Source: Candidatus Aminicenantales bacterium (GTDB taxonomy: Bacteria > Acidobacteriota > Aminicenantia > Aminicenantales > Saccharicenantaceae). From it: a DNA stretch of 64,000 bases. A program made the translations under genes and the position numbers. Location: NCBI GenBank assembly GCA_049512315.1, contig JBEKXF010000002.1, positions 132,706 through 196,705 of the forward strand, written 5' to 3'. The notes beneath the pieces are model-generated. The model searched no databases. It saw only the letters and a list, made by a program, of their open reading frames with translations, and was not told where the DNA came from. Numbering within the stretch: position 1 is the stretch's first letter; every line of letters begins with the position of its first letter. Shown here piece by piece: positions 20,701-64,000 of this stretch.

Positions 20701-21526
20701 TCACAAAGCCGTACGAGGATGTCCGTGAAATGGGATCGGAGGCGCCCTGGATTTCTCGGCCGGAGACTGGGACATTCTCTCCAAGGCGGAAAGCTATCGG
20801 AACCGCGATCCTCCTCCTCGCCTTCTCCTGATAGGCCGTCGGCGCTTCGTCTCGGAAACCGCCCAAGGGCGTATCGACCTGGAGCTGCCCTTCTCTGTTC
20901 AGGATGACGTCGGAGGCACCTCTATACGCCAACCGAATCACCGACGGATCGGCCCCCGGATGGACGATAAACTCGTGCTTGAGGCGCTCGGCCGTGCCGT
21001 AAAAAGCGAGGTCGATCCCCGGCCAGAGGTCCTTGTAGACGATCCGGGAATAAGTCGCGAGGCCCGGACGCCACTCGTCCGGCTTGCCCTTGAAATAGGA
21101 TACGATGGCTTCGGCTTTCCCTTCGCCGGCCGGGCAGACGCCCGGATCCGCTCCGACGAAGTCGAGCTTCACGGTCCAGCGGGTGCTTTCCCCGCGACCG
21201 TCGAGAGTCGACTCGCCCTTTTCTTTGTTGCTCTCGTGGGCTTTCTTCCGAGCATCAGACTGAGTCAGGGCGATCGTTATCCCGGAGGGACCAAAGTAGA
21301 TAGTTTTGTCCGCTCCGGCGACATAATAATCCACTCGAGGGTCGAGCTGACCCCGGTTCGATATGAAATACAGGGGCATCCGGCCGAAATTCGGGTCGAT
21401 CCGCGGGCCGGATACCGTGGGGTCACCAACCCGCTTCCCCTCGGGCCCGGGCCGCCCGGCCGCCGCCGGGTCCAAGGATACGCCGAGAATAAGAATACCC
21501 AGAACCGCTTTAAGGGCTGTTTGCAT
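17732..21526 (-). CDS. Giant secreted protein: N-terminal DUF, about 7 SBBP beta-propeller repeats, 3 fibronectin type III domains, ASH/choice-of-anchor-D-like domain, unknown C-terminus
   Basis: Start revised to ATG 21526 (MQTALKAVLGILILGVSLDPAAAG… signal). Repeated units Y[CS]G[FY]IGG…GIAVD.SGNAYV.G.T.S.DFP…DAFVAKV (SBBP, PF06739-like). Three units …WTD.S.NE.GF.IERK… (FN3). Then …IAFGTVNECATLDRTTIFFNDGGAPLTITAVTF… 1264 aa. Confidence 0.85.
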   Translation of the reverse strand: MQTALKAVLGILILGVSLDPAAAGRPGPEGKRVGDPTVSGPRIDPNFGRMPLYFISNRGQLDPRVDYYVAGADKTIYFGPSGITIALTQSDARKKAHESNKEKGESTLDGRGESTRWTVKLDFVGADPGVCPAGEGKAEAIVSYFKGKPDEWRPGLATYSRIVYKDLWPGIDLAFYGTAERLKHEFIVHPGADPSVIRLAYRGASDVILNREGQLQVDTPLGGFRDEAPTAYQEKARRRIAVPIAFRLGENVPVSGREIQGASDPISRTSSYGFVIGDYDHSLPLVLDPATVIYCGFIGGALDDRATGVAIDSSGNAYVVGWTGSFDFPVAVGPDLGFNSAIQGTDAFVAKVNPAGTGLVYCGYIGGSWDDVATGIAVDGSGNAYVSGWTYSMDFPALVGPGLTPHANISQYSEAFVAKVNASGTGLAYSGFIGGSLGDQAAGIAVDGSGNAYVTGSTESDDFPTTVGPGLTFNGATDAFVVKVAASGTGLVYSGYIGGLGSDYGKGIAVDSSGNAYVTGYTNSYPTEHFPVKVGPSLTYSYGDDAFVAKVNAAGTGLVYCGYIGGTGDDHGAAIAVDPSGNAYVTGDTNSLSQFPVMGGPDLVYNGGQDAFVAKVNATGTSLLYCGYIGGTGDDIGTAISVDQSGNAYVAGQTMSGTGFPVIGGPSLVNAGMADAFLATVDPSGSRLIYCGYLGGSQNDGAGGIAADGTGNVYATGYTRSNDFPVIVGPSLAPSGGSLMISDDAFIARIFEKLPPAAPTDVHATAVTSSEIDLAWTDASANEDGFKIERKTGAGGTWSQIGTVGANITTYKNGGLVEGTTYFYRVRAYNDIGDSAYSNEAGVAILTRPAGPTNLTATAVNERRVNLAWADNSSAESGFRIERKTNAAATWTAIGTVAANVTAYADTQVVEDTTYTYRILAFNSGGDSAPSNEASVTTPDLTIPTAPSGLQATALSATQARLAWIDNSYNEAGFKVERKTGAGGAWAQVGTAAADATSWTDTGLAETTTYYFRVLAYDNAGDSGYSNEAPVTTPAYQPLLRLPIPDIAFGTVNECATLDRTTIFFNDGGAPLTITAVTFASGSADFAYRGPATPFTVPPLGSQTVTVRFGPTATGALSAVFAVQSNDPGAAGATFGVSGTGFIPSITLALQVQRLVERAWIIRREYGKIDLTVTKSVPFNVTTYRLSRKTGTGAYVALKDFTEADLPAGRLTYLDMFLAGDASYSYKVDALDCGGRVIATSSEAGAVSPAARPVTRPERKIVKR
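18409..19261 (-). repeat. Three tandem fibronectin type III domain-coding repeats inside the giant gene
   Basis: Three 95-aa units with the pattern P.AP..L.ATA.S…L.W.D.S.NE.GF.IERK….W..IGT…N.T.Y.D..L…TTY.YRV.A.N..GDS..SNEA.V.T. Confidence 0.65.
19273..20647 (-). repeat. Tandem in-frame coding repeats (about 7 units of about 190-200 bp) encoding SBBP beta-propeller blades
   Basis: Protein-level period of 62-68 aa with a conserved YCGYIGG / SGNAYVTG / DAFVAKVN core implies DNA-level tandem near-repeats. The antisense track ORFs here are repeat artifacts. Confidence 0.7.
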
Positions 21527-21644
21527 AGCTCGTTCCCCTCTGGTCGTTCGACCCATTGTCGACTCTAAGGCTTCTCGAAGAATAGGCCAAGGATAGCACT
21601 GACCGCCGAAGAGAGTCAACCGGAGGGCGAGCCCGACGCCGGAA

Positions 21645-22178
21645 TCAGCCGAAGCTTTCGAGGGTCCGGATGCGGCCCAAGTCTAATTCGCCCTTGACTC
21701 CCCAACCGCGGACACCTGCCGGGATGTCGGGGCGGAATCGCTCGTAAAGAGAATAGGCTTTGGCGGCCAGCTCGGCCCGCTTGAATGAGCGGGCCAGGTC
21801 ACCCATGGCTTTTTCGACGTCCCGAAGCCCGGCGCCGAATTTTTCCTGAAGATAGCGCTCGACTCCGGCGGGGTCGACCGGTTTGTCCTTGACCACCGCC
21901 CTCACGCCCTTTTCGGTCGTTATCGCCGGAATGGGCCGGCCAAGGAGCTCGACCCAGAATTCTTCCCCGAGCCGGGCCTTCATAGGGGAAATCACTTCGG
22001 GGTGTTCGGCCGGCTTGTAGATCCCCAGACTGCGGCCTTTTGATTGAGCATTCATTCCCGCGAGGGCCTTGCCGAGCGAGAGTGCGGCTTCATGGTCGAA
22101 TCCCAACTGTTCGGCGACAACCGCCGCCCATAAGGTCAAGACGGGCGCCCGATTCACGAGGATGATCTCCCGAGTCAT
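21645..22178 (-). CDS. Hypothetical protein
   Basis: 177-aa ORF with good GC3 bias and no recognisable motif. Confidence 0.55.
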   Translation of the reverse strand: MTREIILVNRAPVLTLWAAVVAEQLGFDHEAALSLGKALAGMNAQSKGRSLGIYKPAEHPEVISPMKARLGEEFWVELLGRPIPAITTEKGVRAVVKDKPVDPAGVERYLQEKFGAGLRDVEKAMGDLARSFKRAELAAKAYSLYERFRPDIPAGVRGWGVKGELDLGRIRTLESFG

Positions 22179-22199
22179 GAAAAACCTCCCCTCTACGAT

Positions 22200-22439
22200 T
22201 TATCTGAGATTGACCCCTCGGAGCTTGATGAAGATAAAGCAGCCAATCCCGAAGACGGGCCAGCCAAGATAAGAGACGAAAGAAGCGGTTGAGCGCCGCC
22301 AAACAACGGGCAGAAAGAAGAGGCAGGCCATGGTCGCGGCAATAAATATCCGGCCTCCAACAGACTCGGCTTCGATAAACGCCCAGACTCCCAGCAACAA
22401 GCCTATCCCCACCCCGATGGCGCCGTAATTGATGCCCAT
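22200..22439 (-). CDS. Small hypothetical membrane protein (2 predicted TM helices)
   Basis: 79-aa ORF whose ATG end is at 22439, with two hydrophobic segments (GVGIGLLLGVWAFI; MACLFFLPVVW). Located just downstream of the tRNA on the same strand. Confidence 0.45.
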   Translation of the reverse strand: MGINYGAIGVGIGLLLGVWAFIEAESVGGRIFIAATMACLFFLPVVWRRSTASFVSYLGWPVFGIGCFIFIKLRGVNLR

Positions 22440-28139: not shown

Positions 28140-29996
28140 ATGGACCAGAAGAATAGCCCGGTGACAGTGGCCGCAGCCGGAGGCCAGAGCCTCGATCCCA
28201 AGGCCGTCGACAAAACCCGCGACATCCTCCACCAGCTGTCCAACACCGTCTCGGCCATGAAGATCTTCCCCTCCGAGCACGCCACGCTCAAGAACTTCGT
28301 CGACGATCTGACCCAGAAGATCCAGAGCTATCTCGAAGCCTACGGGAAGCTCGAGATCTGGGTGTCGGAATATTCATTCCTCTGCGGAGGCCGGACGGTC
28401 TTCACCGACGAAATGACGATCAAGAGCCTGCCCTTCTTTTTTTTCAAGGACGGGATGCAGGCCCTCTATTTTTACCAGGGCCTCGACCGGGACGAGGTCC
28501 TCGATTTCCTGGATCTCATCCGGAAAGAGTCCCAGAAACCGGCCAGCGACGGCGATATCGTCACAGCCCTCTGGGAGCGGGATTTCGCCAACATCCAATA
28601 TTACGCGCCCGACGATTTCCTGGAGAACCGGATCGTCCAGGAACGGGCGGAGTCCCAGGCCGCGTCCGGTCCCGGCGCCATGCCCGAGTTCGCCCAAGAG
28701 GTCATCGAGATCAAGGTCGACACCTCGAAGTTCACGACCGGGAAGATCGAGCTTACGCCGGAGGACAGCGACGATGTCCGGCGGAGGTCGGCGATCAAGG
28801 AGCTCGCGGACGAGGAAGCGCCGCGGGCCGCGCTCGAGGAGGCCCCGGCCGAAGGAACCGGGGAGGTCCATAGGAGCCCCGCTGCGGCCATGGATCCGAC
28901 CCTGACGGAAGGCGAGATCCAGAACCTTGAATCCCTAGTGCGGGCCAACCGGACGATCTCCCCCGACGAAGAATTTCTGGACCTTATGGTCGAGATCCTC
29001 AACCTCGAAAAGGACCTCGATCATTTCAGCGCCAGCCTCGAGACCCTGGTGGATTATCACCACGAGCAGCTCCAACAGGGCGACTTCGGCTTTTCCATCC
29101 CGCTCGTCCACAAGGTCCGCGAACTCAGGGATTACCTATCGCAGACAGATCCGGAAAAGTCTGCCAGGCTTGACGCTTTCCTGAAAAAGATCATCAGCGC
29201 TAAGACGGTGGACGCCATCAAGGTCCTCTTCGAAAAGAAAAGGCCGGTGGACTGGAATGCCCTGGTCGATTTCTTCAAGCTCCTGGGACAGCCCGCCGTA
29301 CCCCTGGCCGCGGACCTCTACGAATCCGTCCCGGATGAAGAATCCAGGGCGAAAATCCTGGACTTCATCAAGACAGTCTACAGCCAGGATCCGGGAGGGC
29401 TGGCCAGTCTGGTTGCCGATGAGCGGCCCCTGCTCTCCAAGGGCATCGTCGGGCTCCTGGCCCGGTCCTTCGGCAAAAAGGGGCTCGCTCATTTCACGGT
29501 CTTCCTGGGTTTGAAGGACAAGGACGTCAAGCTCGAGGCCATCCGGGCTTTGGGCCAGGCCAGGGACGAAATGGCCAACCGGATGCTGCTCAGCTTCCTG
29601 AACGACGAGGATGAGGACCTGCGGATCCAGGCCGCCATGAAGCTCAATCCCGTCGAAGAGACGTCAAAAATCCAGCATCTCATCGAGGAAGCGGGCACGC
29701 GGGCGTTCAAGGGCAAGAGCCTGAAGGAAAAACAGGCGATCCTGTCGTTCATCGGCCGGACTCGGACCGAAGAGGCCCTGACCTTCCTCCGCAGGACCCT
29801 CGAGAAAAGGGCCCTCTGGATGCCGACCAGGACGAAAGAGATGAAGCTGGCCGCGGTCTCGGGCCTGGAGAGCATGGGGACGGAAGAGGCCATCCGGGCG
29901 CTCGAAAAAGGGGCGGGGTCCCGGAACCGGGAAGTCCGCGAGGCCTGCTCCCAAGCCCTGGTCAGGCTGGCCCAAATGAAAGTCGGCGGGGCGTGA
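28140..29996 (+). CDS. HEAT/PBS-lyase repeat protein with an N-terminal domain shared with the downstream HD-GYP protein
   Basis: 618 aa. The C-terminal third has HEAT-like repeats (…EDLRIQAAMKL…, …EEAIRALEK…REVREACSQALVRL). The N-terminal about 110 aa aligns with the N-terminus of the next ORF. Confidence 0.65.
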   Translation: MDQKNSPVTVAAAGGQSLDPKAVDKTRDILHQLSNTVSAMKIFPSEHATLKNFVDDLTQKIQSYLEAYGKLEIWVSEYSFLCGGRTVFTDEMTIKSLPFFFFKDGMQALYFYQGLDRDEVLDFLDLIRKESQKPASDGDIVTALWERDFANIQYYAPDDFLENRIVQERAESQAASGPGAMPEFAQEVIEIKVDTSKFTTGKIELTPEDSDDVRRRSAIKELADEEAPRAALEEAPAEGTGEVHRSPAAAMDPTLTEGEIQNLESLVRANRTISPDEEFLDLMVEILNLEKDLDHFSASLETLVDYHHEQLQQGDFGFSIPLVHKVRELRDYLSQTDPEKSARLDAFLKKIISAKTVDAIKVLFEKKRPVDWNALVDFFKLLGQPAVPLAADLYESVPDEESRAKILDFIKTVYSQDPGGLASLVADERPLLSKGIVGLLARSFGKKGLAHFTVFLGLKDKDVKLEAIRALGQARDEMANRMLLSFLNDEDEDLRIQAAMKLNPVEETSKIQHLIEEAGTRAFKGKSLKEKQAILSFIGRTRTEEALTFLRRTLEKRALWMPTRTKEMKLAAVSGLESMGTEEAIRALEKGAGSRNREVREACSQALVRLAQMKVGGA

Positions 29997-30005
29997 GGCA
30001 CGAGC

Positions 30006-31481
30006 ATGGGCGAAGCTGAAGGCAAGACTCCCGTGCGGAACGGCCGCGGCTCCCAAGTGAGGCCCGATTTCAAGACCTTCCAGAAGTCCGCCGTCGACCT
30101 CCTCATTCGGTTCCACATCGTCGTCAAGAACGCCAAGCTCTATCAGGCCAACAACGAGATGTTCCAGGAGCAGGCGAAGGCGCTCTTCGGGAGTCTCGAG
30201 GCCTTCCTGAAGGAGGAGGGCGAAGCCACGTTCCAGGTCCGGCAGAGCGCCCTGTTCTTCAACGGCGTCCGGCTCAAGTTCGCCCTGGGGACCTACCCCA
30301 TCTTCAAGTTCATTCTGGAGGCATTCCGGGTTCGGGAGATCGGCACGCTCGCCTTCTCGCCGGGGCTGACCGCGGAGGAGCTGGCCCGTTTTATTTCGGT
30401 CTTCGGGAAGCCGGGGAAAAGGGAGGGTCCCGCCTGCCAGAAGCTTCTGGCCGACCTCGCCGACGCGGACGTCCGCCACGTCAGCCTGGAAACGGCTTCG
30501 GCCACGGAAACCTTCACCAGTCTTCACAAGGACACGGCCCGGATCTTCTTCCTGAGCATCCTCCACCTCAAGGAGAGCTTCGAGCGCGACCAGCGGAACG
30601 AGCCGGTCCAGATCAACACCACGCGGCGCCTCATGCAGTCCATCTTCAACCACATCGTGGACAACGAGTCGTTCATCTACGGCCTGACCAACCTCAAGAA
30701 TTACGACGAGTACACGCTGAACCACTCCGTCAACGTCTGCATGCTGGCCCTCGCCCTCGGGCGGCGCCTCGGCCTGAGCCGGAGCGAGCTCGTCGACCTC
30801 GGCATCGCCGCGTTCTTTCACGACCTCGGGAAGCTCGATACCCCTGCCGACATCCTCAATAAGCCGGCCAAGCTCAGCGAGGAGGAGCGTGAGATCATGG
30901 AACGCCACCCCCACCAGGGCGCTGAGAAGCTCATCCACCTCAAGGAATTCCGTCGCCTGCCGCTCCGGGCCGTCCACGTCGCCCTCGAACACCACATCAA
31001 GGAAGACCTGTCCGGCTATCCCCATTATTTCAAGAAGGTCGACATCAACCTCTTCAGCAAGATCGTCAAGGTCGTGGACTATTTTGACGCCATCACGACC
31101 AAGCGGGTGTACCGAAAAAAGGTCTTCACCCGGGGGGAAGCTCTGAGCCTGATGCTCGAGTACAGCGGGACCGAGTTCAACGCCGTCATCCTCAAGGCCT
31201 TCGTTAACCTGATGGGCGTGTTTCCGATCGGGAGCCTGGTGGCCCTGAACACGGGCGAGGTCGGGATCGTCGTCGACGTCAATCCCGACCCACGGTTCAT
31301 GCTCAGGCCCCAGGTCAAGCTGATCGCGGACACCGCGAGGAACAAGGTCGACGGCGAGGTCGTGGACCTTTCGGATAAGAACCCGGAAACACGGAAGTTC
31401 CCGAGGACCATCGTCAAGGCCCTGGACCCCAGCACCTACGAAATCGAGGTCGCCGACTACTTCCTGGCCCAGGCCCAGTGA
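30006..31481 (+). CDS. HD-GYP domain c-di-GMP phosphodiesterase with N-terminal sensor-like domain
   Basis: HD motif (AAFFHDLGK, …RHPHQGAEKL…) and a GYP motif variant (LEHHIKEDLSGYPHYF). Starts 10 nt after the HEAT gene. Confidence 0.85.
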   Translation: MGEAEGKTPVRNGRGSQVRPDFKTFQKSAVDLLIRFHIVVKNAKLYQANNEMFQEQAKALFGSLEAFLKEEGEATFQVRQSALFFNGVRLKFALGTYPIFKFILEAFRVREIGTLAFSPGLTAEELARFISVFGKPGKREGPACQKLLADLADADVRHVSLETASATETFTSLHKDTARIFFLSILHLKESFERDQRNEPVQINTTRRLMQSIFNHIVDNESFIYGLTNLKNYDEYTLNHSVNVCMLALALGRRLGLSRSELVDLGIAAFFHDLGKLDTPADILNKPAKLSEEEREIMERHPHQGAEKLIHLKEFRRLPLRAVHVALEHHIKEDLSGYPHYFKKVDINLFSKIVKVVDYFDAITTKRVYRKKVFTRGEALSLMLEYSGTEFNAVILKAFVNLMGVFPIGSLVALNTGEVGIVVDVNPDPRFMLRPQVKLIADTARNKVDGEVVDLSDKNPETRKFPRTIVKALDPSTYEIEVADYFLAQAQ

Positions 31482-35933: not shown

Positions 35934-37229
35934 ATGCCGATCTTCAAGCTTCGGAAGAAAAAGCGCGTCTGTGTCATCGGCCTCGACGGCGTTCCGCACG
36001 GCATGATCCTCGACTTGGCCGAGAAGGGCGTCATGCCGGCCATGGCCCGGCTGGTCGACGCGGGGCATCTCCACAAAATGAAGGCCAGCCTGCCCGAGAT
36101 CTCGGCGGTCTCCTGGACCGATTTCATGACGGGCCGGGACTCCGGGACCCACGGCATCTTCGGGTTCACGGATTTCAAGCCGGATTCCTACGGGGTCCGT
36201 TACCCCAACTTCCAGGACCTGCGGACCCCGACCATCTGGGACACGCTCGGAGACAAGGGGAAAAAAAGCATCGTCATCAATCAGCCCTCCACGTACCCGG
36301 CGCGGCCCATCAACGGCGTCCTCATCTCCGGCTTCGTGGCCATCGAGCTGGCCAAGGCCGTCTACCCTCCCTCCATCCGGGCCGCTCTCGAGAGGATGGG
36401 TTACGAGGTCGACATCGACATCCTGAGATCGCGCGAGGACCCCGAGGTTCTCATGAGGGAGCTGGCGAGGACCCTGGCCGGCCAGGAGAAGGCCCTGGAT
36501 CTCTTCTGGGGAGAGCCCTGGGACCTCTTCGAGTTCGTCATCACCGGCACCGACAGACTTCACCACTTTCTCTGGACGGCCTACGAAGACAAATCGCATC
36601 CCTTCCACGGGCGCTTCCTGGATTATTATCGCGAGGCCGACAGGCTGATCGGAAAGATCGTCGCATCATTCCGTAAGGCCACGGGGAGCGAGGCCGGCCT
36701 GTTCCTTCTCTCCGACCACGGTTTCACGGGCATCGTTCAGGAGGTTTGCCTCAATGCCTGGCTCGAGCAGAACGGCTACCTGGCGTTCAAGGGGCCCGGA
36801 CCGAAAGGGCTGGAGGACATCACGGCCCCGAGCCGGGCCTTCGCCCTGGACCCCAACCGGATCTACCTGAACCTCAAGGGAAAGTTTCCGGCGGGCAACG
36901 TCGACCCCGGCGAAAGGGAGTCCTTCCGCGCGGAGATCGCCCGCAAGCTCGAAAAGCTCGAGTTCGAAGGCCGGAGGGTCGTCCGGAAAGTCTTTTTGTC
37001 CGAGGAGATCTATTCCGGCCCGCAGGCCGAGAAGGGGCCCGACCTCGTCGTCCTCGGCGAGCCGGGGTACGACATGAAGGGGTCGGTCAAGAAGAAGGAA
37101 GTTTTCAGCCGTTCTGACCTCCAGGGCATGCACACCTGGGACGACGCGTTTTTCTGGGCGGCCGCAGACCATGGCCCGGACCTGGCCATCAAAGATATCG
37201 CCAAGACGATCCTCGGAAGCTACGCATGA
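35934..37229 (+). CDS. Alkaline-phosphatase-superfamily type I phosphodiesterase / nucleotide pyrophosphatase family protein (cytoplasmic paralog)
   Basis: Motifs VCVIGLDGVP, …EISAVSWTDFMTG…, …LLSDHGF…; no signal peptide. Its stop overlaps the next start (ATGA). Confidence 0.8.
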   Translation: MPIFKLRKKKRVCVIGLDGVPHGMILDLAEKGVMPAMARLVDAGHLHKMKASLPEISAVSWTDFMTGRDSGTHGIFGFTDFKPDSYGVRYPNFQDLRTPTIWDTLGDKGKKSIVINQPSTYPARPINGVLISGFVAIELAKAVYPPSIRAALERMGYEVDIDILRSREDPEVLMRELARTLAGQEKALDLFWGEPWDLFEFVITGTDRLHHFLWTAYEDKSHPFHGRFLDYYREADRLIGKIVASFRKATGSEAGLFLLSDHGFTGIVQEVCLNAWLEQNGYLAFKGPGPKGLEDITAPSRAFALDPNRIYLNLKGKFPAGNVDPGERESFRAEIARKLEKLEFEGRRVVRKVFLSEEIYSGPQAEKGPDLVVLGEPGYDMKGSVKKKEVFSRSDLQGMHTWDDAFFWAAADHGPDLAIKDIAKTILGSYA

Positions 37230-39376
37230 GAAACGGGCGGCGAACGGCGGGACCCCTCATCGGCCTCATCGCCGTCTTCGCCCTCTCCCTTTCGGCCCCG
37301 CTCGAAGCTTACGTCGGGCCCGGCGCGGGTTTCGCTTTCCTCTCCTCTTTCTTCGTCCTCTTCCTGACTTTTTTCATGGCCGTGTTTTCGTTCCTGGCCT
37401 GGCCCTTCCGCTTCCTGTGGCGCGTCGTGCGCGGTCAGAGGGCTTATAAAGACAGCAAGATCAACAGGATGGTCATCCTCGGGCTGGACGGCATGGAGCC
37501 CACCCTGGCTGAAAAATTCATGGCCGAAGGGAAGCTCCCGAACCTGGCCCGGCTCAAGAAGGACGGGACCTACGCCCGGCTGAGGACGACGACGCCGGCC
37601 ATCTCGCCCGTGGCCTGGTCGTCGTTCATGACCGGGTCCGAGCCCTCCAAGCACAACATCTTCGACTTCCTGAGCCGCGACCCTCGGACCTACCTGCCCG
37701 ACCTTTCTTCGGCCCGGGTCGGCAAGCCCCGGCGCGTTCTCTCCCTCGGGAAATACAACATCCCGCTCGCCAAGCCCGAGATCCGCGGGCTCAGGAAAAG
37801 CGTCCCGTTCTGGAAGATCCTGGGCGACAAGGGCATTTTCAGCACCGTTCTCAGGGTCCCGATCACCTTCCCGCCGGAAAAGTTCAGGGGCCACCTTCTC
37901 TCCGGGATGTGCACTCCCGATATGAAGGGCAGCCAGGGGACGTTCTCGTTCTACACCACGGACGGGGAAAAGGTCCGGAAACACGAGGGCGGGGTCGCGA
38001 TCCCCGTCGAGATCGAGGGGAACAGGATCCGGACGCATCTTTCCGGTCCGGAAAACACGATGCTCAAGACTCCCACGGAGATCCGTCTGCCGCTGACCCT
38101 GACTCTCGACAGGGCCAAAGGCGGGGCCTGGATCGAAGTCGCCGGCGAAGAAAAATTCTTTCTCAAGGAAAAAACGTTCAGCCCCTGGGTCCCGGCCGTC
38201 TTCCGGCCCGGATTGGGGATCAAGGTCCGGTCCATCTGCCGGTTCTTCATCTCCGGGCTCGAGCCGCACTTCGAGATGTACGTGACGCCCCTCAACATCG
38301 ACCCCGAGAAGCCGGCCCTGCCGATCTCGCATCCCTTCATCTACTCGATTTATCTGGCCAGGCTCCTGGGACGCTTCATCACCCTGGGCGAGGCCAACGA
38401 CACCTGGGCCCTGAACGAGGGAATCCTCGGCGAGCAGCCCTTCCTCGACCTCACCTACTCCAACCACGCCGAGTGGGAAGCCATGCTCTCGAACGCCCTC
38501 GAAAAGACGCCCCGTGGGCTCGTGACCATCGTCTTCGAGACGACCGACAGCATCCAGCACATGTTCTTCCGCTATCTCGACAAGAGCCACCCGGCCCTCA
38601 AGAAGCCCGGCCAGAACGGGCTCGGCGCCCGGGTCATCGAGGACCTCTATGTCAGGATGGACGACCTCGTCGGGCGCGTCCGGAAATCCCTGGACGAGCG
38701 GAGCGTGCTCGTCATCATGTCAGACCACGGCTTCAAGTCCTTCCGGCGCGGGGTCAACCTCAACTCCTGGCTCCTCAAGAACGGCTACCTGCGTCTCAAG
38801 GACGGGAAGGCGGAGAGCGGCGAGTGGTTCAGGGACGTCGATTGGGAGAAAACTAGGGCCTATGCTCTCGGGCTCGGCGGGCTCTACCTCAACGTCCGCG
38901 GGCGGGAAGCCAAAGGGACCGTCGGCCCGGGCGGAGAAGCGAAGCGCCTCAAGGCCGAGCTCCTCCAGAAGCTCAAGGGCCTGAAAGACACGGCGACGGG
39001 GGCCATCGCCATCACGAATGTTTATGACACGGACGCGGTTTATTCGGGACCCTACAAGGACAACGCCCCGGACCTCATCATCGGCTACAACGAAGGCTTC
39101 CGGGCTTCGTGGGAAGGCGTCACGGGCATCGTCAACGACACGATCTTCGACGACAACGACAAGGCCTGGAGCGGTGACCACTGCATCGACCCGGCCCTCG
39201 TCCCCGGCGTCCTCTTCTCAAACCTCAAGCTCAAGGGCCAGAATCCGTCGATCATGGACATCGCCCCGACGGCCCTCGAGCTCTTCGGGCTCCGGCCGCC
39301 GGCCCACATGGACGGCCGCAGCTTGGTCGACGCCGCGAACCCGTTCGGAACGTCCGCAGGGGAAAAACCATCATGA
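37226..39376 (+). CDS. Alkaline-phosphatase-superfamily type I phosphodiesterase family protein (membrane-anchored paralog)
   Basis: Two N-terminal hydrophobic helices, then MVILGLDGMEP, …PAISPVAWSSFMTG…, …IMSDHGF…, …WSGDHC…; 716 aa. Overlaps both neighbours by 4 nt. Confidence 0.8.
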   Translation: MRNGRRTAGPLIGLIAVFALSLSAPLEAYVGPGAGFAFLSSFFVLFLTFFMAVFSFLAWPFRFLWRVVRGQRAYKDSKINRMVILGLDGMEPTLAEKFMAEGKLPNLARLKKDGTYARLRTTTPAISPVAWSSFMTGSEPSKHNIFDFLSRDPRTYLPDLSSARVGKPRRVLSLGKYNIPLAKPEIRGLRKSVPFWKILGDKGIFSTVLRVPITFPPEKFRGHLLSGMCTPDMKGSQGTFSFYTTDGEKVRKHEGGVAIPVEIEGNRIRTHLSGPENTMLKTPTEIRLPLTLTLDRAKGGAWIEVAGEEKFFLKEKTFSPWVPAVFRPGLGIKVRSICRFFISGLEPHFEMYVTPLNIDPEKPALPISHPFIYSIYLARLLGRFITLGEANDTWALNEGILGEQPFLDLTYSNHAEWEAMLSNALEKTPRGLVTIVFETTDSIQHMFFRYLDKSHPALKKPGQNGLGARVIEDLYVRMDDLVGRVRKSLDERSVLVIMSDHGFKSFRRGVNLNSWLLKNGYLRLKDGKAESGEWFRDVDWEKTRAYALGLGGLYLNVRGREAKGTVGPGGEAKRLKAELLQKLKGLKDTATGAIAITNVYDTDAVYSGPYKDNAPDLIIGYNEGFRASWEGVTGIVNDTIFDDNDKAWSGDHCIDPALVPGVLFSNLKLKGQNPSIMDIAPTALELFGLRPPAHMDGRSLVDAANPFGTSAGEKPS

Positions 39377-41394
39377 GCCGTCAAAGAAAACCGTCCACGC
39401 TGAGCCGCAGGGAATTCATGAAAGTGGGCGCGGCGGCCTCCGCCGCCCTGACGATCGGCGGCGGCAAAAACATCGTTCCCAAGATCTTCGGAAAAGCCCG
39501 GGCGACGAAAAAGGTCATCGTCATCGGGATGGACGGCCTGGATCACGGCCTGGTCAAGGGCTGGATAGAGGCCGGGAAGCTGCCGACCTTCGATAAGGTG
39601 CTCCGCGGGGGCGGCGATCTCCGGCCGCTCCGGTCGAGCATCCCGCCCCAGACCCCCGTGGCCTGGTCGAATTTCATCACCGGCACGGACCCGGGCGGCC
39701 ACGGCATTTTCGATTTCATCCGGCGCGACCCCCACAACCTCGACCCTTCGCACTTTCTCAATTTTTCCGCGACGGAAACCTCTTCCGCCAAGCACACGCT
39801 CCGGATCGGTCAGACCATCTTTCCCCTTTCGGGGGGCGAAGTCAGGAACCTTCGCCACGGAAAGGCCTTCTGGCAGGACCTTGAGGAGAACGGCATTCCC
39901 TCCACAGTCATCCGGATGCCTTCCAACTACCCGCCCGTCGCGACCCGCCAACGGACCCTCTCGGGCATGAACACTCCGGACCTCAAGGGAACCTACGGCA
40001 TCTTCAACTATTACACGAACGAAGCCAAGCAGATCACGGAAGAGGCGGGCGGCGGCGGCCGCGTCCACGACGTTTTTGTCGTCGGCAACCGGGTCGAGGC
40101 CAAACTGCCGGGCCCGGCGAACAGCTTCCGGGCCGGCAACCCCGAGACCGAGGTCGACTTCAAGGTGTTCGTCGACCCCGTCAACTCGGCGGCCAAGATC
40201 ATCATCCAGGACCAGCAGTTCATCCTCAAGGAAAAGGAATGGAGCGGCTGGAAGAGGGTCCGGTTCCACTTCCTGCCGACGCAGAGTGTCGGTGGGATCT
40301 GCCAATTCTATCTCAAGGAGATCCGGCCAAAGTTCAAGCTTTATATCAGCCCCATCCACATCGACCCCGCCGACCCGGCCCTGCCCATTTCCACTCCCGA
40401 CTCCTATGCCAGGGAGCTCGCCCGGCGCTTCGGCCCATTCTTCACCAAGGGCCTCCCCGCCGATACGGCCGCATTGGACAACGATGTCCTCGATGAGGCC
40501 GAATTCCTGACCCAGGACGACATGGTCCTTCGGGAGAGCATGGAACAGCTCGAGTTCGAGCTCGGGCGATTCGACGAAGGGCTCTTTTTCTATTACTTCT
40601 CGAGCACGGACCAGCGTCAGCACATGTTCTGGCGGCTCATCGATCCGGGCCACCCCGGCTACGACGCGAAGCTGGCCGGGAAATACGGCACGGCTATCGA
40701 GGAGATCTACAGCGAAATGGACAGGGTACTGGACAGGGTCCTCAGAAAGGTCGACCAGGATACCCTCCTCCTCGTCATGTCCGACCACGGCTTCAACCCC
40801 TTCCGCCGGGGCTTCAACCTCAACACTTGGCTGTATCAAAGCGGGTATCACCGCCTGATCAAGCCGTGGAAACAGGAAGAAACGCTCCTTTTCGACAACA
40901 CGGACTGGGCCAAGACTGCAGCCTTCGGGGCCGGGCTCAACGGCCTGTACATCAACGAGAAGGGCCGCGAGCGGGAAGGGATCGTCGCCGCTGGACCCGA
41001 AAAAGAGAACCTCGTCCAGGAGATCGCCCGGAAGCTCGAGGCACTGACCGACCCGAAGACGGGGGAACAGGCCATCCTCCATGCGTACGTCGCCAAGGAC
41101 GTCTACCATGGCCCCTATGTCGAGTTGGCCCCGGACATCGTCCTCGGTTTCAACCGCGGTTTCCGGATCTCCTGGCAGTCTCCCCTGGGGGGCTTCCCCA
41201 AGGACGTGTTCGCGGACAACTTCAAGAAGTGGAGCGGCGACCACATGACTTCCCCGGACGTCATCCCGGGCATCGTCGTGGCCAACCGGGCCATCCGGGC
41301 CGGGGAACCGGCGCTCTTCGACTTGACCGCGGCCATCCTCGACGTTTTCGGCATCGGGAAACCCAAGGAGATGATTGGAACGACCATTTTTTAA
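39373..41394 (+). CDS. Alkaline-phosphatase-superfamily type I phosphodiesterase family protein (TAT-exported paralog)
   Basis: Twin-arginine leader (MSRQRKPSTLSRREFMKVGAAASAALTIGGG), then VIVIGMDGLDHG, …PPQTPVAWSNFITG…, …VMSDHGF…, …WSGDHM… 673 aa. Confidence 0.8.
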   Translation: MSRQRKPSTLSRREFMKVGAAASAALTIGGGKNIVPKIFGKARATKKVIVIGMDGLDHGLVKGWIEAGKLPTFDKVLRGGGDLRPLRSSIPPQTPVAWSNFITGTDPGGHGIFDFIRRDPHNLDPSHFLNFSATETSSAKHTLRIGQTIFPLSGGEVRNLRHGKAFWQDLEENGIPSTVIRMPSNYPPVATRQRTLSGMNTPDLKGTYGIFNYYTNEAKQITEEAGGGGRVHDVFVVGNRVEAKLPGPANSFRAGNPETEVDFKVFVDPVNSAAKIIIQDQQFILKEKEWSGWKRVRFHFLPTQSVGGICQFYLKEIRPKFKLYISPIHIDPADPALPISTPDSYARELARRFGPFFTKGLPADTAALDNDVLDEAEFLTQDDMVLRESMEQLEFELGRFDEGLFFYYFSSTDQRQHMFWRLIDPGHPGYDAKLAGKYGTAIEEIYSEMDRVLDRVLRKVDQDTLLLVMSDHGFNPFRRGFNLNTWLYQSGYHRLIKPWKQEETLLFDNTDWAKTAAFGAGLNGLYINEKGREREGIVAAGPEKENLVQEIARKLEALTDPKTGEQAILHAYVAKDVYHGPYVELAPDIVLGFNRGFRISWQSPLGGFPKDVFADNFKKWSGDHMTSPDVIPGIVVANRAIRAGEPALFDLTAAILDVFGIGKPKEMIGTTIF

Positions 41395-59943: not shown

Positions 59944-61397
59944 TCAATAGGCCCGGGCGAAATAGGCGACGACTTTTCCCGGCCGGCCGCAGCAGGCGCA
60001 AACGCCTTCCGTCTTTCCTTCGGCCTCGTCGAGCGGGATGACCCGGATCGTGGCCATGGTCTCGGTCTTGATCCTGTCTTCGCAGTCCTCCCCTCCGCAC
60101 CAGGGCGCCCGGATGAAGCCGCGCTGGTTTTCCAGGATGTCCTTGAAGCATCCATAGTTGGCCGCGTCACGGATATTGGCTTCCAGGAAGGTCCGGGCCG
60201 CTGCGAGGAGCCCAGCCTGGATCTCCCCGAGCAGCTCCAGGACACGGGACGGGAGCGAGGCGAGCGCCACGGTCTCCTTGGCCTTGGTGTCGCGGCGGAC
60301 GAGGACGGCCTGTCCGGACTTGACATCGCGGGGGCCGATCTCGACGCGGAGAGGCACACCGCGCATCTCGTATTCGGCGAACTTCCAGCCGGGCGTCGCT
60401 TCCTCGCGGGCGTCGACGTCGACCCGGACGCCGGACGCCCGCAGTCCATCGGCCGCGGCCCGGACGACCGGAAGGACGCTCTCCTTCCAGTTCCCCACGG
60501 AGATGGGGATGAGGATGGCCTGGACCGGCGCGATCCGGGGCGGGAACCGGAGGCCGGAATCATCACCATGGACCATGATCAGGGCCCCGATCGTCCGGGT
60601 CGTCATCCCCCAGGACGTCTGCCAGACATATTGCAGGGTCTGGTTGCGGTCTTCGAACTTGATGTCGAAGGCCTTGGAGAAATGCTGGCCCAGGTTGTGG
60701 GATGTCCCCATCTGCAGGGCCTTGCCGTCCGACATCAGGGCTTCGATAGCGTACGTCATCTGGGCCCCGGCGAACTTCTCCCGCAGGGACTTGCGGCCGG
60801 AGAGCACGGGGATGGCCAGCTCGGTCTCGCAGAATTCCTTGTACATGGCCAGGACCTTCAAGGTCTCGGCCTCCCCCTCTTCGGCGGTCTCGTGACAGGT
60901 GTGGCCCTCCTGCCACAGGAATTCCGTCGTCCTCAGAAACGGCCGGGTCACCTTCTCCCAGCGGACGATGTTGGCCCACTGGTTGATCAGGACGGGGAGG
61001 TCACGCCAGGACTTGATCCACCGGGCGTACATGTGGCCGATGATGGCCTCGGACGTCGGCCGGACGGCCAACTTCTCCTCGAGTTCCTCTTTTCCGCCGA
61101 TCGTGACCCAGGCCACTTCCGGCGAGAAGCCCTCGACGTGCTCGGCCTCTTTCTTGAGGAATCCCTCGGGAATGAACAGCGGGAAATAGGCGTTGACGTG
61201 CCCCGTGGCTTTGATCCGGAGGTCGAGCGACCGCTGGATATTCTCCCAGACCGCATAGCCGTGGGGGCGGATGACCATCATCCCCTTCATGGGCGTGTAG
61301 TCGGCGAGCTCGGCCTTCTGGACGAGCTCGAGGTACCACTTGGAAAAATCCTCGCTCTTCGGGGTGAGCTGCTTGATCTGCCGTTCGTTCTCGTTCA
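59944..61397 (-). CDS. proS: Proline--tRNA ligase, archaeal/eukaryote-like type
   Basis: Class II aaRS motifs, anticodon-binding domain, and a C-terminal zinc-binding tail (…CGGEDCEDRIK…CACCGRPG…AYFARAY). The likely start is GTG at 61397 (MNENERQIKQLTPKSEDFSKWY) with a GAGGAG RBS 5 nt upstream, rather than the track's TTG at 61455. Confidence 0.9.
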
Positions 61398-61631
61398 CGT
61401 CGTCTCCTCGCTTTTCGGCCTTTGGGATTCTAGCCGCGGGCCGGTTTTTTGTCAAGGAAACGGGACTGACGGGAGGGAGGGCAGAAGGGGAAAATACGGG
61501 GGAGAAACCCTGATGGACCTGGTGACGGGAATATCCCCCATCATTTCATCGTCAGGGGTGATTGACCGGCCTTATGGGGAATGTCATTTTAGGGTCGCGT
61601 TTCGCCAAGGAAAAGGATAAGGAAGCCAGAC

Positions 61632-62021
61632 ATGCTCAGGAGGATTTCCACCGACACACTGCCTGTCAGGCGCCATGCCGAACAGCGCGGGTTCAAGCTC
61701 TCCCTGCCTCTGACCGTCGAGGGCCCTGACGCCGACGGCGCCCTGTTCAGGGAGGAGACGACCCTCTCTTACATGAGCCACGTGGGCGCCCTCTTCCCGC
61801 TCAGGACCCCTGTCGCTCCCGGCTCGAGGATCAAGCTGGCCGTCTCTCTTCCCCCCAAGCTGGGGGAGGGCAAGAGCCTGAAGCTCGTGATCAAGGGGAC
61901 GATCGTCTTTACCGAGCCCGGGAACGAGGATGGGGCTCCCGCCCGGGTCTCCCTCCGTCTCGAAAGCCGGTACATCGTCGAGTCCGCGGCGGCCGAGGCG
62001 GACGCGAACCAGCCCGCCTAA
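61632..62021 (+). CDS. PilZ-domain-like protein with degenerate c-di-GMP-binding motifs (paralog 1)
   Basis: AAGGA RBS. It shares the fold pattern of the canonical PilZ at 63411 (…KLSLPLTVEG.DADGALFREETTLSYMSHVGALFPL…). The RxxxR motif is a variant (RRHAEQR) and the D/NxSxxG motif is weakened (MSHVGA). Confidence 0.65.
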   Translation: MLRRISTDTLPVRRHAEQRGFKLSLPLTVEGPDADGALFREETTLSYMSHVGALFPLRTPVAPGSRIKLAVSLPPKLGEGKSLKLVIKGTIVFTEPGNEDGAPARVSLRLESRYIVESAAAEADANQPA

Positions 62022-62165
62022 GGAGGGCGGAGATGGCGCTTCCGAGGACAAAAAACGCCCCGCCCGCATGTTTAGCCGTCGACGGTGAGGATAACGGCGA
62101 TAATTTAACCCCGCGATTCCTCATGAGGAGGGATTGAAGGCAGCCAGGCCCTGAGCGAAAATGCG

Positions 62166-62558
62166 ATGGAAATGAATACAGTCAAGGCTTTTCATAACCC
62201 CTCCACTCAAGGCGCGGCCAGGGCCGGAAAGCGGGAGCGCACGTTCGAGCTCTCTCTTCCGGCCCTGGTCAAGGGACTCGACGCGAGGGGAAAGAGGTTC
62301 GAAGAACCGACCCAGATCGCCGCCATCAGCGCGCAGGAGGTGTCGTTCAGGCTCAATGCCCGCCTCCTGATCGGCTCCAAGACGACGGTTTCCCTGGACA
62401 TTCCCAGGACCCTGATCCTGGAGAGCCCGCTCCGCCTCCTGGTGACGGGGGCCGTTATCTATGTCCGGTCGGAGGCCACGAACGGGAAAAGCCAGTATGT
62501 TTCGATCCTCCTCGACCGGAGCTTCCGTCTCTCGCCCAATGCCGCCCTCCCCACCTGA
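62166..62558 (+). CDS. PilZ-domain-like protein with degenerate motifs (paralog 2)
   Basis: Aligns with paralogs 1 and 3 (…ELSLPALVKGLDARGKRFEEPTQIAAISAQEVSFRL…) but lacks the GG of the D/NxSxGG motif. Confidence 0.55.
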   Translation: MEMNTVKAFHNPSTQGAARAGKRERTFELSLPALVKGLDARGKRFEEPTQIAAISAQEVSFRLNARLLIGSKTTVSLDIPRTLILESPLRLLVTGAVIYVRSEATNGKSQYVSILLDRSFRLSPNAALPT

Positions 62559-62700
62559 GCCCGGGCCTCTTCTTCCCGGTGCGCTCCCCTGCCCAGACCG
62601 CTCTTGACAAGCCCCCCGCCGATAGACTATGATTCGCTAAAATCCTGATCATGTGACTTGAAACCGGATAACCAAATTGCCAAAAGGGGCCGAAACGAGC

Positions 62701-63390
62701 ATGGAGAAAAAGAAAACCCAGCCGTCCGTGGACACGAAGATCACCCTACTCATTTTCTGCCCGTCCGATATCATCCTCGCCGGGATCCTGAAGGCCCTCG
62801 AGACGGACCCTGAGCTTGAGATCCTGAACATAGAAAAGAACACGATCGAGTCGTTCATCGACTCCATCAAGAAGCTCAAGCCCCAGGTCATCCTTTTCGC
62901 CCACATGGAGCCGCTGCCGAACCTCCGCGAGATCTGCAAGGCCATCCGCGAGATCTCGAAAACCCAGGGCCGGTCCCAGCTCCTGCTCTTGGGGAGCATC
63001 CCGGCCCACGAGGAGATCGTCAACCTCATTAACGCCGGGGCCCGGGGTTACTTCGACCTCAACGATTCGTCCTCCCAGCTTCCGGAAGCCGTCCACGGCA
63101 TCCACAAGGGCGAGATCTGGCTCCCCCGGGACAAGATGTCCAGCATCATGGACCGGATCATCTCGGTCGTCGGCCGGGATCTCAAGGAAAAGACGCTCGA
63201 CCAGCTGACGCCGACCGAGTTCCAGGTCCTCCGCCTCATCGGTCAGGGGAAAAGCAACGACGAGATCGCCGAGCTGATGTTCATTAGCAAGAACACTGTG
63301 CGGTCCCACATCAAGAGCATCTACGCGAAACTCGACACCCACAGCCGCCTACAGCTGGCGCTCTACGCCATCAATTCGGCCCTGTTTTAG
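62701..63390 (+). CDS. LuxR/FixJ-family (NarL-type) transcriptional regulator with an atypical receiver domain lacking the phospho-acceptor Asp
   Basis: C-terminal HTH_LuxR domain (…LTPTEFQVLRLIGQGKSNDEIAELMFISKNTVRSHIKSIYAKL…). In the N-terminal receiver, the acidic-pocket DD is replaced by FC (LLIFCPSD) and the phospho-Asp position by A/H (ILFAHMEP). ATG 62701 is preferred over the track's TTG at 62677. Confidence 0.8.
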   Translation: MEKKKTQPSVDTKITLLIFCPSDIILAGILKALETDPELEILNIEKNTIESFIDSIKKLKPQVILFAHMEPLPNLREICKAIREISKTQGRSQLLLLGSIPAHEEIVNLINAGARGYFDLNDSSSQLPEAVHGIHKGEIWLPRDKMSSIMDRIISVVGRDLKEKTLDQLTPTEFQVLRLIGQGKSNDEIAELMFISKNTVRSHIKSIYAKLDTHSRLQLALYAINSALF

Positions 63391-63410
63391 CCTAAGGAAT
63401 CGAGGACGTC

Positions 63411-63803
63411 ATGACCAAGAAAGCCGCCCCCAAAAAGAAAGCGAAAAAACTCCCCAAGGACCTGGAGGTCAATCGCCGGCGGGAATGGCGGTTTGACCTG
63501 CCCCTGAGGACTGTCATCGAGGGCAAGCTGCCCCAGGGCGACAAGTTCCATGAGGAAACGGAGCTCCAGAACATCTCTTCGGGCGGCGCCTACTTCGCCC
63601 TGGACTCAGGCGTCGCCGTCGGCTCGAAGCTCAACCTCATGATCGAGCTCCCGAACGAGCTGACCGACGGAAAGAAGATGAAGCTCTGGATCGGCGGCAT
63701 CACCGTCCGCCTCGAAAAGCCGGACCCGAAAGCGAAGCGGCAGGGCGTGGCGATCCGGTTCAGCGACAACTTCAAGGTCATCCCCGCCGCCAAGAAAAAA
63801 TAG
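63411..63803 (+). CDS. PilZ domain c-di-GMP-binding protein (canonical motifs)
   Basis: AAGGAATCGAGG RBS. Lys-rich N-terminus, RxxxR motif (RRREWR) and D/NxSxGG motif (NISSGGAYF). 130 aa. Confidence 0.8.
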   Translation: MTKKAAPKKKAKKLPKDLEVNRRREWRFDLPLRTVIEGKLPQGDKFHEETELQNISSGGAYFALDSGVAVGSKLNLMIELPNELTDGKKMKLWIGGITVRLEKPDPKAKRQGVAIRFSDNFKVIPAAKKK

Positions 63804-63804
63804 C

Positions 63805-64000
63805 GTGCTCCGCGCCGCGCTGACGGGGGGGATCGCCTGCGGCAAGTCGGTTGTCGCCGGCGTTCTCCGGGAAAAAGGTTGTTTCGTCCATTCCGCCGAT
63901 GCGGCGGCCCATGAACTCATGTCCCCCGGCCGCCCAGCCTGGAAAAAAATCGTCGCCCGGTTCGGAAAAGAGGTCCTTCGGCCGGACGGGGCCATTGACC
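63805..64000 (+). CDS. coaE: Dephospho-CoA kinase, N-terminal part (truncated by window end)
   Basis: GTG at 63805, 2 nt after the PilZ stop. Encodes VLRAALTGGIACGKSVVAGVLREKGCFVHSADAAAHELM…, with a CoaE-type P-loop (LTGGIACGKS). Confidence 0.7.
   Translation, partial: MLRAALTGGIACGKSVVAGVLREKGCFVHSADAAAHELMSPGRPAWKKIVARFGKEVLRPDGAID

Follow-up and report, generated by a model that had tools for sequence, protein, structure and literature searches.

A LuxR-type regulator with a degenerate receiver among three PilZ paralogs: a candidate c-di-GMP output module of Candidatus Aminicenantes

How is a LuxR-type regulator controlled once its receiver has lost the residues needed for phosphotransfer? 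The question is raised by a locus of Candidatus Aminicenantes, located near the end of a 64,000-nucleotide (nt) stretch of contig JBEKXF010000002.1, which is referred to here as the window. Four open reading frames (ORFs) on the + strand, within positions 61632-63803, encode in this order PilZ1, PilZ2, a regulator of the LuxR/GerE type and PilZ3. An earlier note on this DNA had described these four genes, on one strand and in this order, and the ORFs are present as described. The note had also called the gaps short throughout, which is true of the regulator-PilZ3 gap (20 nt) only, since PilZ1 and PilZ2 are separated by 144 nt and PilZ2 and the regulator by 142 nt. The best explanation that we can offer for the locus is a lineage-specific output module of Aminicenantes for the second messenger cyclic di-GMP (c-di-GMP), in which PilZ3 would bring the signal to a regulator that appears to respond neither to a kinase nor to c-di-GMP directly.

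The genomes nearest to the window are Candidatus Aminicenantes/Aminicenantales metagenome-assembled genomes, the top one being a SPRUCE peat bin at 99% identity, and exact matches to the window occur in peat and other metagenome contigs. For comparison we assembled a set of 80 species-level genomes or loci, extracted the orthologs from each and counted alignment columns over 81 regulator, 79 PilZ3 and 76 PilZ2 sequences. The ortholog medians of the three gaps, in the order of the genes, are 124, 163 and 20 nt.

The regulator and its receiver-like domain

The regulator gene (62701..63390, + strand) encodes an orphan, atypical LuxR/NarL-type protein of 229 aa, composed of a pseudo-receiver, an alpha-6 helix and a GerE-type helix-turn-helix (HTH). 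Public gene calls start it at the ATG at 62701, in agreement with the ortholog consensus MEKKK; translation could also begin at a TTG at 62677. The output domain (residues 161-229; 63181..63387, +), which had been rated a good HTH_LuxR domain, deserves that description: Pfam GerE (PF00196) matches with 9.2e-21 and covers residues 175-231 of the 237-aa form. The pseudo-receiver (residues 14-136; 62740..63108, +) was delimited by HMMER alignments and an AlphaFold2 (AF2) model, Pfam Response_reg giving no match in the regulator at E <= 1. Full-length HMMER alignments were obtained with LiaR/VraR (6.7e-20), NarL (6e-16) and DevR, and the NCBIfam models of NarL, MctR and CsgD (1.6e-16 for CsgD) also align over the full length, far under their cut-offs. 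In the AF2 model (predicted local distance difference test score, pLDDT, 72 overall and about 80-90 in the receiver) five strands alternate with five helices over residues 14-135, followed by a helix at 143-158 and the HTH. A fold search with the regulator returned ordinary NarL-family regulators first.

The earlier note had called for an alignment of the receiver, and the HMMER alignments with NarL and VraR/LiaR bear out its expectation that the equivalents of D13, D57 and K109 are lost. C20-P21 stand in place of the acidic pair, A67 in place of NarL D59 and L120 in place of K109. The acidic pair is gone as claimed, but the residues aligned with it are C20-P21 and not F19-C20, the FC of the note. 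Loss of the phospho-acceptor Asp had also been read correctly: position 67 is Ala in 79, Ser in one and Val in one of the 81 sequences and is never Asp or Glu. The Thr/Ser position depends on the alignment used and falls on G98 (VraR) or on S99 (NarL). As judged from these alignments, the domain is a pseudo-receiver in which canonical phosphorylation is impossible. Public names of the type 'LiaR/NarL response regulator' are misleading, because the protein is an orphan atypical regulator with a dead receiver. No histidine kinase was found among the called genes within 10 kb on each side, nor in the conserved 12-kb neighbourhood of the 80 genomes; a cognate kinase could be encoded elsewhere in the genome.

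The most conserved parts of the pseudo-receiver, at 95-100%, are the former active-site loops (C20-P21-S22, E70, L72-P73-N74 and R76-K80), alpha-4 and beta-5, and its alpha-5 and beta-1 are variable. This pattern suggests that the face of the dead pocket is still in use as a binding surface. C20, C79 and G98 are invariant (81/81), C20 lying at the first position of the acidic pair and C79 in helix alpha-3, and a redox or metal input to the pseudo-receiver through C20 and C79 is conceivable. One public protein of 233 aa (P0137) matches residues 17-161 of the regulator; its middle and its C-terminus are garbled, probably by a frameshift in the assembly or gene call.

Could the regulator itself sense c-di-GMP? 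At the N-terminus of the predicted alpha-6 (143-158) it carries W140-L141-P142-R143 (63118..63129, +), the proline variant of the c-di-GMP motif of VpsT. VpsT binds c-di-GMP via WLTR, with R134 as the key contact and R134A abolishing binding (PMC3359988), and also uses K120 (PMC7288161). WLPR aligns in register with VpsT W131-L-T-R134, and M150, which is invariant, aligns with the VpsT dimer residue I141. The helix concerned is predicted with low confidence (pLDDT 41-55), and a linker helix occurs in NarL-type regulators as well. It was this alignment that first suggested VpsT-like sensing through W140 and R143 at the alpha-6 dimer interface, with the PilZ proteins as parallel outputs, and the 99% mean identity of residues 137-160 to the window copy is in its favour. 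We nevertheless regard direct sensing as very unlikely and have demoted it, because WLPR is the variant found in QstR and BrpT and the equivalent of K120 is an acidic residue. The VpsT-type motif, W[F/L/M][T/S]R, is broken at position 3, which is Pro in 81/81 regulators. QstR of Vibrio cholerae and BrpT of Vibrio vulnificus carry WLPR and act independently of c-di-GMP (PMC6237807), and exchange of the Pro of QstR for Thr gives c-di-GMP dependence, as PMC6237807 states with reference to Chodur et al. 2017. In one pairwise HMMER alignment VpsT K120 corresponds to E129, which is Glu in 80 and Asp in one of the 81 sequences. Moreover, VpsT reached only rank 15 in the fold search. W-x-x-R is common among the nearest NarL-type relatives, many of them with intact phospho-sites, so that it is not diagnostic; many of these relatives have a kinase-like ORF (about 610 aa, recognised from a sequence motif) immediately upstream. 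The idea of an HTH specifically like that of VpsT was likewise dropped, LiaR and VpsT being matched equally well (VpsT E = 1e-11).

Matches in a library of representative sequences point to a large, apparently uncharacterised NarL-type subfamily with GE-x-W-[ILV]-x-R at the position of the VpsT motif. Degenerate phospho-sites were seen in 15/31 full-length matches with this motif versus 12/55 without it, in a sample biased by the ranking according to similarity to the query.

The PilZ paralogs and their transcription units

The third PilZ gene (63411..63803, +) encodes a canonical single-domain PilZ protein of 130 aa, which matches Pfam PilZ (PF07238) with 27.1 bits and 5.5e-6 (gathering cut-off 22.5). 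PilZ3 contains RRREWR (R22-R23-R24-E25-W26-R27; 63474-63491, +) and NISSGG (N54-I-S56-S-G-G59; 63570-63587, +), and thereby carries both RxxxR (R23, R27) and [D/N]xSxxG (N54, S56, G59). R22, R23, E25, W26, R27, N54, I55, S56 and G59 are invariant in 79/79 orthologs; the less strict columns are R24 (Arg in 76/79), S57 (Ser in 70/79) and G58 (Gly in 55/79). By sequence, PilZ3 has every feature of a c-di-GMP-binding PilZ adaptor. That it is the only one of the three with canonical motifs had been said before, and the ortholog column counts bear this out.

The domain of PilZ3 is framed by tails rich in Lys, Ala and Pro that resemble histone H1 (MTKKAAPKKKAKK... at the N-terminus and ...AAKKK at the C-terminus). 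PilZ3 orthologs, at about 133 aa, have a median net charge of +14. The tail before RRxEWR has a median of 21 residues with a mean of 30% Lys plus Arg, and the final 12 residues average 43%; this basic composition is kept across orthologs despite sequence drift. Nucleic-acid binding by the tails is possible on grounds of composition. It leads to a different explanation of the locus, in which PilZ3 is a nucleic-acid-associated c-di-GMP effector whose H1-like tails tether it to DNA and which works alongside the regulator, at promoters or on the nucleoid, without gating the pseudo-receiver. The charge that persists through sequence drift suits this explanation, as does an HU gene two genes downstream. 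On the other hand, DNA binding is read from composition, flexible basic N-termini also belong to normal c-di-GMP binding by PilZ domains, and PilZ1 and PilZ2, with median net charges of +2 and +5, are left unexplained. We consider it an unlikely account of the locus.

The single-domain PilZ1 (61632..62021, +; 129 aa) and PilZ2 (62166..62558, +; 130 aa) are the non-canonical paralogs. The claim that the three proteins are paralogs holds far beyond chance: BLASTP gives 6e-18 for PilZ1/PilZ3, 9e-15 for PilZ2/PilZ3 and 1e-12 for PilZ1/PilZ2, and local profile-profile comparison with hhalign gives probabilities of 99.5-99.7% among the three. A Pfam scan of the window copies found no domain in PilZ1 or PilZ2; among orthologs Pfam PilZ is matched, weakly, by 7/33 of PilZ1 and by 0/38 of PilZ2. 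Searches of the PDB sequences with the PilZ1 and PilZ2 profiles gave zero matches. PilZ1 is without RxxxR at the aligned positions, where P/R/A and G are found instead, and its second motif is [Y/F]-[M/I]-S-H-x-G, the D/N being lost. PilZ2 has a conserved K-R-E-R where RxxxR is expected, with K22 and S/A/T26 at the aligned Arg positions, and its second motif is [S/G/A]-I-S-A-Q-E, in which the D/N is also lost and the Gly has become Glu in 74/76.

PilZ1 is assigned to the PilZ family by profile homology (hhalign probability 99.6%). For PilZ2, the most diverged of the three, structure prediction adds to the evidence. Its AF2 model (pLDDT 80) is a six-strand barrel, and a Foldseek search of the PDB gave PilZ domains (BcsA, Alg44, MotI, MrkH, PA0012) for all ten leading matches and for the majority of the first 20. 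Among 5.8 billion entries, homologs of PilZ2 were found in only 303 clusters, none with a Pfam domain; all the named ones are called 'hypothetical protein', and all clusters carrying the name of an organism are from Aminicenantes or Acidobacteriota. Going by the model and its fold matches, PilZ2 represents a PilZ-fold family without existing annotation. Compared with eight relatives, the ratio of nonsynonymous to synonymous substitution rates (dN/dS) is 0.04-0.44 for the PilZ genes overall, 0.04-0.44 for PilZ1 and 0.12-0.32 for PilZ2, values that speak for purifying selection and against decay of any of the three genes.

In which units are these genes transcribed? Upstream of the regulator gene lies a sigma-70-type promoter, TTGACA-18-TATGAT (62604..62633, +; 11/12 match); the window and 77 orthologous loci, 78 upstream sequences in all, share TTGACA and TAnnAT without exception. 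The distance from the stop codon of the regulator to PilZ3 is 10-29 nt in 77/78 loci, with a median of 20, the outlier of -634 being an artefact of the choice of start codon. PilZ3 is followed by coaE, encoding dephospho-CoA kinase, whose 5' part (63805..64000, +; Pfam CoaE 8.5e-17) begins 1 nt past the PilZ3 stop, which is also the commonest spacing in the orthologs. Upstream of PilZ1, the divergent intergenic region shared with proS (233 nt, 61399-61631) contains two conserved blocks, the imperfect palindrome GGGAATATCCCC (61527-38) and AGGGGTGATTGACCGG (61554..61569, +), the latter invariant in an alignment of 72 orthologous upstream regions. AGGGGTGATTGACCGG comprises a -35-like TTGACC at 61562-67, with a possible -10 element, CATTTT, 17 nt downstream; a consensus scan made no call there, and we take the block to be a putative PilZ1 promoter. 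A strong proS promoter lies on the - strand (61455-61427). No promoter was identified upstream of PilZ2. The likely transcription units are PilZ1 alone, PilZ2 alone and regulator-PilZ3-coaE. Since coaE, a core gene of CoA biosynthesis, is probably driven by the promoter of the regulator, constitutive expression of regulator and PilZ3 is implied.

RNA-level control and a shared operator were considered as well. When 61300-64000 was scanned against Rfam by E-value, the sole match was a chance one to a miRNA; neither a c-di-GMP riboswitch nor another RNA came up. A shared operator for the regulator in the three upstream regions was rejected, GGGAATATCCCC not being enriched in the window (4 matches vs 11.5 expected) and repeat searches giving nothing convincing.

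Conservation and the case for coupling

The order PilZ1-PilZ2-regulator-PilZ3, on whose conservation the earlier note had made its proposal depend, is kept in all 80 loci. The four genes are preceded by proS (- strand), a PCMT gene, a DUF192 gene and three pseudopilin-like genes, and followed by coaE, the HU gene, nfeD and a Band_7 gene. Synteny by itself says little about coupling, because the entire 12-kb region (PNPase-pseudopilin-PCMT-proS-[four genes]-coaE-HU-nfeD-Band_7), with its housekeeping genes, is collinear in these genomes; as a proof of coupling it was rejected.

Identity across the 80 genomes is 78-99% for the regulator and 65-95% for ProRS. In mean pairwise distances over 45 genomes the regulator (0.17) is the slowest when compared with nine neighbours, ProRS and HU included: Band_7 0.18, HU 0.22, ProRS 0.28, NfeD 0.36, PCMT 0.38, PilZ3 0.39, CoaE 0.55, PilZ2 0.62 and PilZ1 0.71. 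Its dN/dS against the eight relatives is 0.03-0.09, about 0.06. Mean identity to the window copy is 82% in the pseudo-receiver and 98% in the HTH. Among 1.84 billion representatives at 50% identity, the regulator has one full-length relative (76%) and fragments; the next matches in that library are ordinary NarL-type proteins at 27-36% identity. Within the limits of these searches the families of the regulator and of PilZ2 appear to be confined to Aminicenantes, and the conservation of the regulator makes it a probable global regulator of this lineage.

Evolutionary rates also covary within the locus. Partial distance correlations, calculated after background divergence had been regressed out, are 0.46-0.63 for the six pairs within the module (mean 0.54), versus a mean of 0.22 for both module-control and control-control pairs.

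From these observations we favour, tentatively and well short of certainty, a reading in which PilZ3 is a c-di-GMP sensor that acts by contact on a phosphorylation-dead, c-di-GMP-blind regulator, and in which PilZ1 and PilZ2 are ligand-blind paralogs with the same partner. The regulator's own route to c-di-GMP appears closed because of WLPR and E129. With direct sensing unlikely, an input mediated by PilZ3 is the best guess, and the modest covariation of rates supports it. A retained binding surface fits as well, since the former active-site loops, alpha-4 and beta-5 are so highly conserved. PilZ3 would sense c-di-GMP and contact the former active-site/alpha4-beta5 face of the pseudo-receiver, and this contact would switch the DNA binding or the activity of the regulator, a second-messenger-dependent contact taking the place of phosphorylation. 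PilZ1 and PilZ2, probably transcribed separately, would compete with PilZ3 on the regulator or complement it. Whether high c-di-GMP would lead to activation or to sequestration cannot be predicted. The model of a regulator governed by PilZ adaptors had been put forward in the earlier note; the pseudo-receiver and the canonical PilZ3 strengthen it, and the general collinearity and the tight coupling of coaE weaken it.

Several observations weigh against this reading. The contact between PilZ proteins and regulator is one that we infer from the shared operon and the covariation, and the binding of c-di-GMP by PilZ3 is predicted from its motifs. The covariation is modest, its pairs are not independent, and some control pairs reach similar values (LuxR-HU 0.54, PilZ1-CoaE 0.51). 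The collinearity extends over the whole 12 kb, and coaE is coupled to PilZ3 as tightly as PilZ3 is to the regulator, so that the operon is not specific to one function. PilZ1 and PilZ2 are set off by gaps of about 140 nt, and a conserved -35-like block precedes PilZ1. Furthermore, only 1/80 metagenomic loci of distant W-x-x-R relatives of the regulator has a PilZ gene nearby (PilZ HMM and motif regular expression), and PilZ adjacency was rejected as a general trait of the wider W-x-x-R LuxR subfamily.

The sole PilZ neighbour among these 80 distant loci, in locus L087 (L087:6-353), is a canonical PilZ protein of 115 aa similar to PilZ3 (RRLERFDL...NICSGGAFF). It lies 1.4 kb upstream of a typical NarL-type regulator (L087:1785-2441) with DD/D/K intact and the motif GELWVERK.

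A rival explanation is that there is no functional coupling. The regulator could then be a constitutively dimerising factor of the QstR/BrpT type, set by its abundance, by a small ligand or by C20/C79 redox, and the PilZ genes could be independent c-di-GMP effectors, adaptors for other targets, or members of the regulon that sit in a stable region of the core genome. The 1-nt gap between PilZ3 and coaE would be tight packing of unrelated genes, like the collinearity of the neighbourhood in 80 genomes and the separate placement of PilZ1 and PilZ2. Regulators with WLPR do function without c-di-GMP, and Cys-redox or ligand control at beta3-alpha3/alpha3 is documented for pseudo-receivers (PMC12632262), to which the invariant C20 and C79 can be related. 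Nor are eroded PilZ motifs unusual in themselves, given that more than 17% of single-domain PilZ proteins are non-canonical (bioRxiv 10.1101/2020.02.11.943704). Less easily reconciled with independence are the stronger rate covariation inside the four genes than with their neighbours, the fact that exactly this regulator gene is flanked by three paralogs, and the same narrow taxonomic range of the regulator and the PilZ families. We hold this explanation to be a real possibility, though on balance doubtful.

PilZ3-mediated control of the regulator can be extended to a partner switch common to the whole class, in which c-di-GMP-loaded PilZ3 and its two ligand-blind paralogs compete for the face of the dead receiver. 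This extension is speculative, and we regard it as rather improbable. If true, the ratio of the barrel proteins together with the level of c-di-GMP would determine how active the most conserved regulator of these genomes is, and a PilZ-gated pseudo-response regulator would have replaced phosphorylation of a master LuxR-type regulator across Aminicenantia, a wiring undescribed so far. The switching of pseudo-receiver regulators is not yet understood (PMC12632262), and few partners are known for single-domain PilZ proteins, although these form the most abundant group of c-di-GMP receptors. The locus offers a testable case, since every sampled member of the lineage combines a dead receiver with WLPR and with a canonical PilZ from the same transcript. 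The lineage is large and uncultured and occurs in peat, in sediments and in digesters; because all components are soluble proteins of small size, an in vitro test is feasible without culturing.

Elsewhere in the window, the HD-GYP protein and the pseudopilins mentioned in the earlier note were found by Pfam. The HD-GYP-type protein (30006-31481, +; PF13487 3.8e-24, HD...GYP present) is encoded 30 kb from the cluster, and the pseudopilins (about 57.2-58.1 kb, N_methyl matches) 3.5 kb from it; nothing links either to the cluster. Beside the HD-GYP gene are the genes for a HEAT_2-repeat protein (28140-29996) and for a rhamnosidase. Among the window ORFs of at least 200 aa, none showed a GGDEF motif. 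At about 18560-22340 on the - strand, a run of small genes, among them one for an AAA_25/DnaB-like protein and two for HTH_17 (excisionase-type) proteins, resembles a mobile element, either integrated or surviving as a remnant. At 35934-41394 (+), three tandem PF01663 type I phosphodiesterase/nucleotide pyrophosphatase paralogs of 431, 716 and 673 aa are likely one operon, since their genes overlap by 4 nt.

Comparison with known systems

The components of the locus are of known kinds, namely PilZ proteins both canonical and non-canonical, a WLPR-type LuxR regulator with a pseudo-receiver, and PilZ adaptors acting on regulators. What is new is their combination, its fixation throughout the class and the extreme conservation of the regulator.

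In QstR and BrpT an identical WLPR occupies the same place, following the receiver-like domain and preceding both the dimerisation helix and the GerE-type HTH, and their function is independent of phosphorylation (PMC6237807). The position of QstR L137 (VpsT I141) is occupied in our regulator by the hydrophobic M150. QstR keeps an Asp (D58) at the putative phospho-site, whereas in the regulator described here the corresponding residue is A67, and the acidic pair and the Lys are missing too. The likeness to QstR and BrpT lies in the WLPR motif; the best full-length matches among solved structures are LiaR/VraR and NarL, not VpsT. No PilZ neighbours of QstR or BrpT are described in PMC6237807. 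VpsT (PDB 3KLN/3KLO) shares the architecture of receiver-like domain, alpha-6 and GerE HTH, with W and R in register. It retains the phospho-Asp that is lost in our regulator, in which direct c-di-GMP binding is not expected because the Thr/Ser of the motif is Pro and K120 is Glu.

CsgD, RitR and Hp1021 are pseudo-receiver proteins to which the regulator can be likened: they have a receiver by alignment or fold, their phosphotransfer residues are gone and they are orphans (PMC12632262). In atypical receivers conservation moves to the beta3-alpha3 loop and alpha-3 (PMC12632262). None of the three is described with flanking PilZ paralogs, unlike the locus presented here.

For the PilZ side, precedents exist in Pseudomonas aeruginosa, where the single-domain adaptors TssZ (PA0012) and HapZ act on the transcription factor HinK and the two-component protein SagS, respectively (PMC10912698). 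TssZ contacts HinK most strongly when c-di-GMP is low, and the contact prevents DNA binding (PMC10912698). In these systems a regulator is governed through direct contact with a stand-alone canonical PilZ protein, as may be the case with PilZ3 here, and the structure of PA0012 (8u0i) is among the fold matches of PilZ2. Their partners were found by interaction screens, according to PMC10912698, and not by gene neighbourhood, and there are no ligand-blind paralogs. HinK is called 'LasR-type' in the abstract of PMC10912698 and LTTR (LysR-type transcriptional regulator) in its discussion, and may not belong to the LuxR family.

PilZ1 and PilZ2 have their counterparts among non-canonical PilZ proteins, the PilZ of Xanthomonas and Pseudomonas in the PilB-PilZ-FimX complex and XCC6012, which retain the PilZ fold, have lost RxxxR and [D/N]xSxxG and are kept as protein-protein adaptors (PMC8389850, PMC3131395; bioRxiv 10.1101/2020.02.11.943704). 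PilZ1 and PilZ2 have no neighbouring gene for a type IV pilus ATPase or a FimX-like protein. The two proteins differ from those examples as a separate, unannotated lineage found in Aminicenantes only, with replacements of its own, [Y/F]-[M/I]-S-H-x-G and I-S-A-Q-E, in place of the second PilZ motif.

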